Origin: Octopus vulgaris
Taxonomy: Eukaryota
NCBI GenBank assembly: GCA_951406725.2
Contig: OX597831.1
Span: 47,802,001-47,866,000 of the forward strand
Length of the DNA stretch: 64,000 nucleotides
Direction: 5' to 3'
Position 1 is the stretch's first letter. Each line of letters starts with the position of its first letter. Shown here one piece after another: positions 1,305 to 42,618 of the stretch. A program made the position numbers and the translations under genes. The notes beneath the pieces were generated by a model, which worked only from the letters and a program-made list of their open reading frames with translations, was not told the origin of the DNA and searched no databases.

Positions 1305-1910
1305 CTTACATTAGCAAGAAGTTGAGGTTATAAGAGATAATGGTGTCATTGAGACCCAAAGGTGTCAGGTAATGCTGAATAAGTGCTATAGAAAGACCAT
1401 AGTTAAGTTCCAGATTCGGTAATATTGAGAATAAGGGGTTCAACGTTGATTCTATGTCAGCGTGTGTATATAAGAATTTTTTGCGTAATAGGATAAAAAA
1501 ACCAAGGCTGTATAGATATTAGAGCATTTATAGATAGAAGGTCTTACAGCTGTTTCTAGGATATTAATTAATAATATCCCTTCATCGGAGATGGTATGAG
1601 AGGAAAAATTAAGTCATAGTTAGTTTCGATGTGATACAAAATAGAGAGTGAGGTGGAGGAAAGAAAATAGATGTAAGATATGTATGGGTATTGAATTTGA
1701 AAATCCGTTTTATAGGCATAATGGTATATATGCAATATTCCAATATCCTTTGAGTAAAATCCAAAAGTCCAACAGAGTTTAATATGAGTCCTTCCAAATA
1801 TAGAGTTTATAAGCAATGTAAGATTCCCTTATGAGTGAGATCCAGCAGATTTTAAAACTTGGTCATTCCCAGTAGAGAATTTATATACAGTGTTGTAGAG
1901 TCAAGGTTTG
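1305..1910 (-). mobile_element. Probable PLE-derived element in (TA)n carrying a hammerhead motif
   Basis: Flanked on both sides by (TA)n; contains the hammerhead fold at 1542-1591. Confidence 0.55.
1542..1591 (-). ncRNA. Minimal type I hammerhead ribozyme motif (CCGAUGA core)
   Basis: Minus strand: TCT CCGATGA a-gggatatt..aatatcct-a GAAA CAGCT GTA AGA; stem I TCT/AGA, palindromic helix III ACAGCTGT. Confidence 0.7.
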
Positions 1911-3680
1911 TATATATATATATATATATATATATAAATATATATAAAGCATGATTTATTCATGATCAGAGTTGTTTGAAAACCAAGGTACTACTGTGTG
2001 TGTGTGTGTGTGTGTGTGTGTGTGTGTGTGTGTGTGTGTGTATATCTATCTATCTATATATATATATGTATGTATGTATAGACACGTACATATATACATA
2101 CATTCATTCATTTACACATATACGTACATTTATATCTATATGAAACTTGAATGAAACAGGAAAATTGTGTTTGTCTGACATCAAGATATTAACAATTTAC
2201 TGAATTACACTTTACATTTCACGTATTTTAATTAATATTTATATAATGAACTGTAAACCATTTCCTTTTTATATCTAATAATTAACTGTTATCGTTTTAG
2301 TCTGTGTAAAAGCACTGTCTGCCACACAAGATACATTATGGTTATACATTTGAGTGAATATATTTTGTGTTTTTTCATGTCAGTTTGCGTGAGTGTCTCC
2401 GATAAAAACAAAAGAAGGTATAAACGGTTGATCAATTGTCTTTTCTTAACAGAAACTACAACATATGGCGAGACAAGATTTACATATATGTTACAAATCC
2501 ACTTCTCAATATTAATGTCAGCAGACTTTTTAACAATATACCTAATTAAGCTTTGCAAAAAGTTCTTCTTTCAATTTTGTAGATATGACTAAGATATCAG
2601 ATGAAAGAATGTCCTCTTTTTTGAAGACAGAAGTCTAGGAGTTGTCTGGGTTTTGTTTCTTAGTCTTTTATAAAGAGCAGCTGTAGAACTATCACTGATT
2701 TTGCTCCACTCAGGTTCATCTGGACAAAGGCTTCCTGGTTGTTTTCTTTGTCATTTTACTTTTGTAATACAATCGCCATCATCAGTGGTAGCATAATCAA
2801 TGTTAATTATATTCATCACCGACATAGTCTTCATCATACTATTATATTTATCACCATCATCATTGTCATCGTCGTCGTTGTCACCACCACCGTCGTCATC
2901 ATCATCATCATTGTGTATTGAAATACTCATTATTTTCGAGGAGCCTCATAGCATACATTATACGTGTGATATAAAAACGTGTGTGTGTGTATACATATAT
3001 ATATATATATCCAGCTGTTTCTGAAGGGAGATATAGCCTTTGACCTTTGAGTAGGAAATGTATGAACTGAATACACATGATTAATAATAGACAAACACAG
3101 AAAAGCCCTTGATGATGTTGCTAGTGTTAATATCAATGGTGATAATCATGTTGATGATGATGATGATGATGATGATGATGATGGTGAAATGATAATGAGG
3201 ATTTATTGGACTGAAGGTAATAATGCAGGGTAATGAATATGTGTTCTGTCAATGCCGATGTTTAAAGAATCAGACTTCTGTCTTTTATAGAAGAATATAC
3301 TAGCAAAATTATTTATTTACTGAAAAATTTACAACAACGATATAGATGTAAATTTGCAGCTAATAATAGAGGTAAAGGTAATTAAGCTGGAAGAATCGTT
3401 ATTTCCTTGCTTAGCAGAATTTCTTCTTCCAGATCTTCATGTTGGGCTCAAATCCCACCTTCCAACACTTTGGGATTGATAAAATAAAGTAACAGTCATG
3501 TACTGAGATTGATGTAACAGACATGCTCTCTCACCTCAAAACCACTGGCCTTGAACTCTACAACAAACTGGCAGGCAATCTGTTCAGAGAGACTATTGTG
3601 ATCACAGTCATATGCCATATAAATATGAAAGAAATACAACTAAGCTTTTTGTCAGGCATTCTTTTATTTGTTTGTTTGTT

Positions 3681-4141
3681 TGTTTCAGTCATTTGACTGT
3701 GGCCATGCTGGAGCACTGCCTTTAGTCGAACAAATCGACCCCCAGGACTTATTCTTTGTAAGCCTAATACTTATTCTATTGGTCTCTTTTGCCAAACCGC
3801 TAAGTTATGGGTATGTGGACACGCCAGCAACAGTTGTCAAGTGATGGTGGGGGAACAAACACAGACACACAAACATACATGCACACACACACACAAACAT
3901 ACACACACACAGACACACAAACACACACACACACACACACACACACACATACACTTACACACACGCGCGTGCACACACATATAATGGGCCTCTTTCAGTT
4001 TCCATCTACCAAATCTACTCACAAGGCTTTGGTCGGCCTGAGGCTAAAGTAAAATACACTTGTCCAAGGTGCCATGCAGTGAGACTGAACCCAGAACCAT
4101 ATGATTGGCAAGCAAGCTACTTACCACACAACCACTCCTGC
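3681..4141 (-). mobile_element. tRNA-derived SINE, family A
   Basis: Full-length reverse-complement match to 8779-9193 with internal (CA)n. Confidence 0.9.
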
Positions 4142-4211
4142 TAATGATTCTGCCAGCTTGCAGCCTTAATAAACCTTTCTACTATATGGAAACTGGGCAA
4201 TAGCCTCCTAA

Positions 4212-4433
4212 CCCTTTTGATACTAACCTACCTGAAACTGCCTCTCACTCTGTAGTATAAATGTCTTATTTTCAAAAATTTTGCATTAAAATCTTCCACC
4301 AAACCTTAGTCACAATTTATGTTCCTAACACTAGCTTAGTGATAACTAAGTTATTTTACTAAATTCTTTGTTATATTTAAAATTAATTGAGAGAAACACC
4401 AAGCATCTCAAAATAAATATGGTAACAAAAGTG
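4212..4433. mobile_element. piggyBac-type MITE
   Basis: CTAA|CCCTTTTGATAC...GTAACAAAAGTG|TTAA termini; a reverse-complement copy starts at TTAA|CCCTTTCGTTAC at 5458. Confidence 0.7.
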
Positions 4434-40164: not shown

Positions 40165-41084
40165 CGAGGTGGTATCAGAATGTTCCTGGACTAGTTCTGT
40201 AACATGCCAACAAATGGTGACACATGGTTGCATGCACCATGAGAACTAGCAGTGGCCTTCATGAGGCAGAGTGCTGAGTGACATCACTGTGTTTATTTCT
40301 CAAGTTGTGAAATTTGTGTTTTTGTGATCACACGTATGCTATAGTCTGCGATTTTGTAATGGAAAGGAACAAAGAACCAGCGTGAAATTTTGCATTAAAC
40401 TTAGGGAGTCTGCTACAGAGACATTGAGCATGCTTTGGCAAGTTTACAGCAACAAGGCAATGGGTTGTACACTATGCTTCAAGTGGCATGGGTGCTTCAA
40501 AAGTGGAAGAGCATCACTGAAAGATGATGAGCAATCTGGAAGACCTGCCATGAGCATCATCTCTGGAAATGTGGTATTGTACATTAAGAATTCATACCTC
40601 AGGACCTGACCATCAATTAGAGTTCTACTGTGACATTTTGAAGCATTTGAAGGAGGACATTTGGTGAAAGTGACCGGATTTGTGGAGCATGAGGAATTGT
40701 ATATTTCATGATGACAGTGTACCCTGTCAGCAAGTTGTCCTCGTTCATGAGTTTCTCACCAAAAACAACATGGTATCATTTTCACACCTGTCCATTACAC
40801 CAGATTTAGCACCTGCAGATTTTCATCTTCTCTCCAAAATGAAAATGTAGCTCAAAGGTCCCCCATTTTAACACCATTGTCGGAATACAGAGTGAATCGC
40901 AAATGGTTCTCAACTCACATATAGAAAATGATTTCCAGGCCAGATTCCAAAAGTGGCAGGATTGCTGAGACCGGCGTATTACTGTGCAAGGTGACTATTT
41001 TGAAGGAGATGATGCTAAAATTTAGGTAAATAAGTTGTTTGTTATTAAACATATCTAGTTTGGGAACATTTTGATACCACCTTG
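40165..41084 (+). mobile_element. Mariner element with both TIRs, internally deleted and decayed transposase
   Basis: CGAGGTGGTATCAGAATGTTCCTGGACTAG / CTAGTTTGGGAACATTTTGATACCACCTTG; KFCIKL..DDEQSGRP, FHDD, TPDLAPADFHL. Confidence 0.9.
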
Positions 41085-42199
41085 CCTTAAGATACACTCA
41101 TAGATACATGAACACGTGTATATACATATGTGATATATGCACTCTTATATATACACACATGCACATATGCATGTACACACTCATGTGTACACTCACACAA
41201 ATACTTGCATACACATTCTTTCTGTCTCTTATGCACATACACAGAAACTAATTAACATATGCACATTCACACATTTACAGACACACACATGCAAACATGT
41301 ATTTACATTCACTCAGGCATACACATCCTTATATTCACACAAACTCAAGTTCGCGTTCATATACATACACTCATACTGAGATTCATACATATGCACAGAA
41401 AACACATGTTCACACACACTTGTATACTCTCTAAAACACATATTCAATCACAAACACACACCTGCACATAGATTCTCAAATTTACATACATTCACTCATA
41501 CACAGACATACAAATACACACACATACATGCCGACATATACACTCATGCACACACACTAACATACTCTTGGAAAAATACATATTCAATCATGAACATGCA
41601 TAGATTCTAGCATTCACATGCATACACATATATACAGATTTACATACTCAAAGACACACGCACAAACACATACCAAACATATACACTCACAAAAAAACAC
41701 ATATTCCGTCATAGATACACATAGATTCTTACATCCACATACACACATTTTGAACTTAGTAACTTCTTCCAGGTGAATAAATTTGCAAGAACAAGTGAGG
41801 TGAGTGACAAGGTGGTTAGCCAAAAAGACTTTTATTTTTCTATCCTCTTCTAACTATTGGAATCAGAAATATTGGCCCAAAGAATCCTAAAGTTGAAGAA
41901 TGTAAATCTTGTCAAAACTTTGATCATTGAATTTGAAATTAGGGGAACTGAATCTTGGCATAATACCAAATTTTTAGAAGCTTCTTCCAAACTTTGCCGA
42001 TGTACAGAGAAATAGATACAGAAAATCAATTTAAATGTATTTTAAGATTTGCATATTTTCTGAGAGAAAATGGAAATAAGAAAAGGTTAAAATTAGAAAA
42101 ATCAGTACAATGCAGATAATCTCAACATTGTGTGCTTGTTCTATATGGTTCATTTCGTAGTTCATTTATTTTCATTAATAAGGTAATTGCAGGTATGGG

Positions 42200-42365
42200 T
42201 ATGGGTGTGTGGTTAAGAAGCTTGCTTTGCAACCATGTGAGTTTGGATTCTGTCCCACTGAGCAGCACCTTGGGCAAGTGCCTTCTGCTATAGTTGCCAT
42301 GTGAGAGAATTTGGTAGACAGAAATTGTGTGGAAGCTCATTGTGTGGAAGCTCATTGTGTGTCTG
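42200..42365 (+). mobile_element. Family A SINE fragment
   Basis: gtgtggttaagaagcttgc...caccttgggcaagtg. Confidence 0.75.
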
Positions 42366-42397
42366 TGTGTGTATATATATATATATATATATATAGG

Positions 42398-42618
42398 TAA
42401 AAGCAGCAGAAAATTCAACAAAACTTGTTACTCTGAGTTTCACGTTCCCGTTCGTCGGACAGTTTTTGCAAAAACTGTCCGACGAACGGGAACGTGAAAC
42501 TCAGAGTAACAGGCTTTGTTGAATTTTCTGCTACTTTTAAATAAAGCATATTACTCTACCACTGCTATTTGAGTACTCTTTTTTCCACCTTGTTTCACAT
42601 TTATGTGTTTACTCCGGT
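42398..42618 (+). mobile_element. Well-preserved palindromic hammerhead element in (TA)n
   Basis: 142-bp spacerless palindrome 42398-42539 (centre TTTTTGCAAAAA, about 3 mismatches) plus an unpaired tail. Confidence 0.85.
42475..42512 (+). ncRNA. Minimal type I hammerhead ribozyme motif (CCGACGA core), mirror copy on - strand at 42425-42462
   Basis: CTGT CCGACGA ACG-GGAA-CGT GAAA CTCAGA GTA ACAG; stem II capped by a GNRA loop. Confidence 0.8.

Follow-up and report, generated by a model that had tools for sequence, protein, structure and literature searches.

Hammerhead motifs whose core reads CCGANGA, with C at position 4 (C4) in place of the U (U4) of the canonical CUGANGA core, occur at four places in a 64,000-nucleotide stretch of the Octopus vulgaris genome (the window: G000:C18:47,802,001-47,866,000, contig OX597831.1 of the 2.8-Gb assembly GCA_951406725.2). 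All four are 3'-end hammerheads of Penelope-like retrotransposons (PLEs, for Penelope-like elements); three belong to Hydra-type families and one to a Neptune-like family. There is hardly any doubt about this identity or about the inheritance of C4 from master elements. The variant is common, being found in about a third of the sampled cores with U4 in roughly two thirds, and it probably originated independently in three or four of the lineages. The window is repeat-rich, with a G+C content of 35.5% and a CpG observed/expected ratio of 0.31, and no host gene was obvious by eye in its list of open reading frames (ORFs).

The elements are named here after the start (C3) of their cores: A (1588, minus strand), B (9517), C (28881) and D (42479). 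A structure scan of the window with core positions 3, 4 and 7 unconstrained recovered all four, in agreement with the initial annotation, and added mirror cores in B and D (C3 at 9381 and 42458, both on the minus strand), giving six C4 cores and one spurious site (50388). Canonical CUGANGA is matched by none of the six, which are therefore variant hammerheads that a strict search for that core misses, as had been proposed. C3, G5, A6, G8, A9, G12-A15.1, U16.1 and H17 are present in the window cores, and every core combines G12-A13-A14-A15.1 with helices I and II, a triplet that reads GUA or GUU, and a stem III that is short and palindromic. Stem I has 3, 7, 3 and 4 bp in A, B, C and D, and stem II has 9, 4, 4 and 3 bp, respectively. 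The stems, GAAA and NUH that had been called intact were all found, but the word was generous, given that a single unpaired base stands beside stem II in A, B and C; helix I is just 3 bp long in A and C. None of the window cores reached the gathering score of the Rfam hammerhead model, and the full three-way fold was absent from the minimum-energy folds of all four listed cores (0/4, z from -1.8 to +0.6). The near-perfect arms reported for two of the elements were borne out, with identity at 99/100 bases in B and 69/72 in D.

The window copies are short 3' ends, 5'-truncated or inverted, lying within (TA)n, which is the usual form of PLE remnants. Elsewhere in the genome, family B occurs as tandem units of 2.58 kb that hold an ORF of 717 codons, the hammerheads flanking the ORF in the position of terminal repeats; full copies are 99.6-99.7% identical and carry C4, so that the youngest B elements hold intact 717-codon ORFs together with the variant core. 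The B protein (P0001) had no match in a Pfam profile search, and it contains the motifs by which Craig et al. (2021, PMC8557442) define Hydra PLEs: RWK, DKT, the CxCx5C linker, CxxC and CxH. Its single ORF, unit below 3 kb, (TA)n targets and tandem and inverted copies are likewise those of this clade. The hammerheads of A, C and D sit 3' of PLE ORF ends. In D, the ORF upstream of the core at locus L166 has 40% identity to P0001 over 366 residues, and in A an ORF end upstream of the L110 core has 28% over 88 residues; by these tblastn matches both are probably Hydra-type PLEs. In C, the last 326 codons of an ORF (L181:1-978), ending about 2.8 kb upstream of the core, contain a Cx4CxxC zinc-linker and a GIY-YIG match under the Pfam cut-off (E 0.0054), which point to a Neptune-like PLE; this ORF is linked to the core at a single locus among the 10 examined, and the 3' untranslated region (UTR) is common to L181 and L173. 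The four families had been described as unrelated. C does stand apart, but A, B and D are all Hydra-type and belong to one PLE clade.

Two further observations concern these elements. Long microsatellite-rich 3' UTRs separate ORF and hammerhead in A (about 1.1 kb, L110), D (about 1.1 kb, L166) and C (about 2.8 kb, L181). Besides, a 2,619-base contig, whose RNA origin is a guess, covers a whole unit with C4, and either a tandem array or a circle would fit it.

Inheritance of C4 was examined with family patterns in which positions 4 and 5 were left free. Genome-wide matches numbered 1,982 for A, 4,701 for B, 489 for C and 480 for D, with none for any of the backwards controls; these totals are lower bounds that cover narrow subfamilies. 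The tallies are hand counts of the first 100 matches of each search, in chromosome order. As decay of CpG to TG and to CA is about equally frequent, an excess of TG marks a true U4 master. In the D subfamily sampled, positions 4-5 read CG in 90 rows, CA in 5, TG in 3 and otherwise in 2. The C4 subfamilies of A (71 rows) gave CG 47, CA 11, TG 11 and other 2, whereas one U4 subfamily of A (29 rows) gave no CG and 27 T. The decay products are thus nearly symmetric in the A and D subfamilies. Family B gave CG 82, TG 17 and TA 1, with 15 of the 17 TG rows in an older subfamily that is U4 in 15/16 copies. In C the counts (CG 50, TG 46, CA 2, TA 2) indicate two masters. C4 is therefore a master state, with U4 masters alongside it. 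U4 was counted in 46/100 rows of the C sample, in 27/29 of one A subfamily, in 15/16 of older B and in 9/21 of the D rows of a generic search described below. Its proposal that C4 is the family consensus holds for the subfamily of each window copy and fails for the families as wholes, all of which have U4 masters. Chance or one-off mutation is ruled out by the copy numbers, the empty backwards controls and the symmetric CpG decay.

Generic patterns gave a wider sample, which is not a random one: its rows lie within the first 4.5-10 Mb of a single contig. A minimal-type pattern had 26,885 matches genome-wide (control 332); among the first 100, C4 was present in 37, all of family C, and a fifth large family, E, was U4 in 40/40 rows. 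A Hydra-type pattern had 37,459 matches (control 2,486), and the first 100 included 30 with C4, among them three or more further small groups; the D rows in this set were 12 C4 and 9 U4. One core of the set is very similar to the hammerhead of Hydra-1_oBim in PMC8557442. Shuffled sequence (400 kb) yielded 15 scan matches, none with a U4- or C4-type start, whereas a strict scan of 40 blind 10-kb stretches yielded 36, of which 13 had U4-type starts (a single tandem array accounting for 7) and 4 had C4-type starts, 2 of them convincing. The suggestion that C4 is lineage-wide is ruled out by the U4 sister subfamilies present in all four families A-D and by family E.

Other hammerhead-like motifs were met in these searches. 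Tandem repeats with a length of about 355-360 bases occur at L126:3000-4600 (G000:C1 near 20.0 Mb) and on its opposite strand, and a canonical U4 type I hammerhead is present in each; the seven copies over both strands resemble a non-LTR (long terminal repeat) retrozyme. Covariation of U3 and A8 was seen in motifs of L163, L139 and L155.

The direction of change was studied with quick, midpoint-rooted IQ-TREE searches. The alignments comprised 81-166 columns surrounding each core and omitted positions 4-5; for D, removal of near-identical copies reduced 77 rows to 47. A C4 clade is nested within U4 sequences in A (SH-aLRT 98), B (96) and C (99), and a U4 subfamily is nested in turn inside C (90) and inside D (96). 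In the D tree C4 is already present in several older relatives. Related to this, U4 is found in 56/56 of the PLE hammerheads of Fig. S3 in PMC4209133, where the search descriptor fixed the core, and in 26/26 Hydra rows of File S2 in PMC8557442, the octopus entry included. The nesting together with U4 in these published sets supports U4 as ancestral, and the trees support three well-placed gains of C4, a probable fourth and two reversions to U4. A single shared origin of C4 is ruled out for A, B and C by its nesting within U4. No consistent compensating change adjoining the core was seen by eye across the listings of families A-D.

Why masters should repeatedly acquire C4 is a separate question. 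In the mechanism that we favour, at close to even confidence for the chain as a whole, C4 would be inherited from masters, gained separately, and kept by selection as a slower but working ribozyme. Reverse transcription would start in the tail 3' of the hammerhead, as it does in the PLE of Anolis carolinensis (PMC11167929), and would have to copy through the hammerhead; a cut would then abort the copy, the cDNA ending at nucleotide 1.1 as a tail-only insert, and such inserts are indeed seen (below). With a slower core, more templates would escape the cut, and what cleavage remained, whether by a dimer or assisted by the PLE protein, would be enough to trim tandem transcripts. In the Anolis element the hammerhead requires protein, and the RNA serves as substrate mainly in its uncut form (PMC11167929). 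Attenuation by C4 is likely, by analogy with a viroid hammerhead in which U4C reportedly lowered activity strongly in vitro and left the viroid infectious (cited in PMC3088659). The broader idea that two deep PLE clades in one host have repeatedly tuned their hammerheads down by U4C, so that the template survives reverse transcription, with tail-only inserts as a record of germline cleavage, is doubtful.

Selection on position 4 has to be set against drift. As core invariance is built into copies picked by pattern, 36 copies found incidentally were used: over the ten core positions other than position 4 they depart from their family's majority base at 17/360 sites, and elsewhere at 872/4,245, a contrast inflated by flanks that are of low complexity and partly misaligned. 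Those ten positions are conserved across subfamilies; the contrast does not establish that constraint persisted after C4 arose. Position 4 may instead be a relaxed two-state site at which either pyrimidine works, so that U and C drift in the masters and C brings no advantage. We regard this account as possible, with a smaller share of our confidence. It would explain why C4 was gained in A, B and C, why U4 returned in C and D and why both U4 and C4 subfamilies amplified, and in random DNA the C-type tetramer was found 1,065 times vs 2,668 for the T-type, a C share of 29% that is similar to the 30-37% of C4 among cores. On the other hand, it has to accommodate C in the youngest masters of four of the five large families despite CpG decay pressure (p about 0.005-0.03 under drift, calculated post hoc from the T-to-C counts given below), a figure that leans towards selection without settling the choice, and the absence of C4 from the published PLE sets of PMC4209133 and PMC8557442 named above.

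A biased source of C at this position is also conceivable. Cephalopods have high levels of RNA editing, and the inverted arms would form double-stranded RNA, in which A-to-I editing of the antisense arm, fixed by reverse transcription, could drive T-to-C changes including that at position 4. We consider this very improbable. In comparisons of basal with crown groups, which are comparisons among existing copies, T-to-C was found at 14/135 T sites and at 4/22 TpG sites, and there was no directional excess (T>C 14 vs C>T 12, A>G 5 vs G>A 6).

The activity of the C4 core may have left traces in insertion junctions. If RNA is cut after H17, cDNA made from it is expected to stop at nucleotide 1.1. 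In the youngest B subfamily, copies diverging within 20 bases of a tail anchor were taken from the first 100 of 122 matches; 37 rows were excluded as indels or internal deletions and 63 were kept. The junction lies at the predicted cut in 15 of the 63 rows (12 loci), as against 2, 2 and 4 at the three neighbouring positions (binomial p 0.0009, or 0.012 after removing 3 loci with at least 3 bases of microhomology). Other peaks, of 7 and 6 rows, fall within the palindromic stem III. The 12 loci have different flanks, 5 of them are ambiguous by one base, and they include three tail-only inserts and three head-to-head fusions in which two ends meet bluntly at 1.1; a fourth such fusion was seen outside this set. 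In the full-length B array at L122, the 5' start lies about 4 bases 3' of the cut (a single case, judged by eye). There is thus a footprint at the predicted cut in the youngest B elements, which is suggestive only. As a separate observation, inversions in B and D often have their junction in the middle of the palindromic stem III, and the head-to-head elements to which this gives rise are common.

This footprint bears on a further explanation, according to which the C4 motif is catalytically dead and its fold is kept for binding of the PLE protein, for positioning the start of reverse transcription or as an overlapping promoter. Hammerhead activity is dispensable for insertion in vitro in the Anolis system (PMC11167929), isolated motifs do not form the full three-way junction in minimum-energy folds, the D junctions give no peak, and a core variant with U6 exists in a C-related subfamily, all of which would suit a dead fold. 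Against it stand the junction peak and the blunt fusions exactly at nucleotide 1.1 in young B elements that bear C4, the conservation of the catalytic G8 and G12 and of the U16.1 position, and the activity of U4C in the viroid (PMC3088659). We judge it improbable. The U6 variant itself, with U and not A at core position 6, is found in several copies of that subfamily (L005, L019, L066, L089, L145, L166), which also show a compensated stem I pair.

Several results weigh against the favoured mechanism. The drift probability is post hoc, U4 has reverted in amplified subfamilies of C and D, and the high copy number of family E with U4 means that C4 is not needed for amplification; U6 in an amplified C-related subfamily suggests that catalysis may be dispensable. 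Among the first 100 of 1,123 matches in D, the junctions form no peak, only 2-3 of some 40 rows ending at the cut, and the signal is weak among the first 100 of 468 matches in older B (5 at the cut vs 2, 1 and 3 nearby, p 0.11). The C4 gain in D is unpolarised within the genome, and the trees are the quick, short, midpoint-rooted searches described above. In the Anolis PLE, catalytic mutants still insert in vitro and RNA-seq shows no ends at the cut (PMC11167929), and a mutational scan found low activity for mutations in the CUGA turn (PMC9901934).

The octopus motifs have features in common with known systems. With the minimal PLE hammerheads of Cervera and De la Pena (2014, PMC4209133) they share the type I layout, a short palindromic helix III suited to dimers, the unpaired base beside stem II, the location in terminal repeats, mirror copies on opposite strands and thousands of truncated copies; unlike that set, with its descriptor-fixed U4, the octopus families have C4 as the master state of large subfamilies. 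Family B resembles the Hydra-clade PLEs (Craig et al. 2021, PMC8557442) in motifs, single ORF below 3 kb and (TA)n targets, and A, B and D agree with File S2 entries of that work such as Hydra-2_aMil and Penelope-1A_NV in their types of stem III and in an additional base ahead of G12; unlike here, all 26 Hydra rows of that file are U4. Five motifs from the present families had no hammerhead match in the PMC8557442 supplement, the whole file having been searched. The base change is that of the U4C viroid hammerhead (Ambros and Flores 1998, as cited in PMC3088659), which is reportedly far slower in vitro and sufficient in vivo; there it is a rare variant, whereas here it has been fixed several times in amplifying retrotransposon lineages. 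Poseidon of Anolis carolinensis (Frangieh et al. 2024, PMC11167929) is similar in tail structure, in AT-rich targets and in reverse transcription that starts internally, 3' of the hammerhead; it differs in its protein-assisted hammerhead with no ends at the cut, as compared with the suggestive genomic footprint in one subfamily here. The U4C change itself was already known. The literature searched does not report C4 in hammerheads of PLEs or of octopus, or as a retrotransposon master state, although subscription papers or Repbase could hold one. Hammerhead positions in the window are collected in Table 1. Relaxed cores were reportedly used by Arkhipova et al. in 2017.

Table 1. PLE remnants with C4 hammerheads in the window (positions of the 64,000-nucleotide stretch)
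Feature	Position	Strand	Remarks
Family A 5'-truncated 3' end, Hydra-type PLE	1467..1819	-	75-84% to loci L110, L115
Family A hammerhead	1542..1591	-	C4 core 1588-1582; predicted cut after 1545; in C4 clade of tree
Family B head-to-head inverted 3' ends, young Hydra-clade PLE, between (TA)n tracts	9288..9668	.	98-99% to full-length unit L122
Family B mirror hammerhead	9324..9387	-	C4 core 9381-9375; predicted cut after 9331; absent from the initial annotation
Family B hammerhead	9510..9574	+	C4 core 9517-9523; predicted cut after 9567
Family C short 3' end, Neptune-like PLE	28798..29020	+	95% to L069, 81% to L181
Family C minimal hammerhead	28878..28910	+	C4 core 28881-28887; two-base palindromic stem III; predicted cut after 28907
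Family D head-to-head inverted 3' ends, Hydra-type PLE, tail on right arm	42398..42620	.	89% to L166
Family D mirror hammerhead	42426..42462	-	C4 core 42458-42452; absent from the initial annotation
Family D hammerhead	42475..42512	+	C4 core 42479-42485; predicted cut after 42508

Other remnants lie in the same window. An old, decayed inverted pair of family D, overlooked at first, is found at 8491-8768 with T at position 4 in both arms. A decayed copy related to family C (43471-43574) and a tail fragment of family A (889-950) are on the minus strand, and a decayed Hydra-type PLE ORF in four pieces, with about 30% identity to P0001, is on the plus strand (19942-21534). A degenerate 5S rRNA match (36826-36948, minus strand, 42.4 bits) may be a pseudogene or the head of a 5S-derived short interspersed nuclear element (SINE).

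PLE hammerheads cut poorly alone and were dispensable in the sole reconstituted system. Natural U4/C4 sister pairs in four families, together with an intact C4 element, allow a direct comparison of cleavage rate and of the effect on insertion, and insertion junctions offer a readout of past cleavage from DNA only. By rough extrapolation from two samples of 100 rows, about 20,000 cores in this genome would be missed by a CUGANGA descriptor. Consequently, hammerhead censuses, and some statements that an animal retroelement lacks a hammerhead, may need a search that allows either pyrimidine (Y) at position 4.

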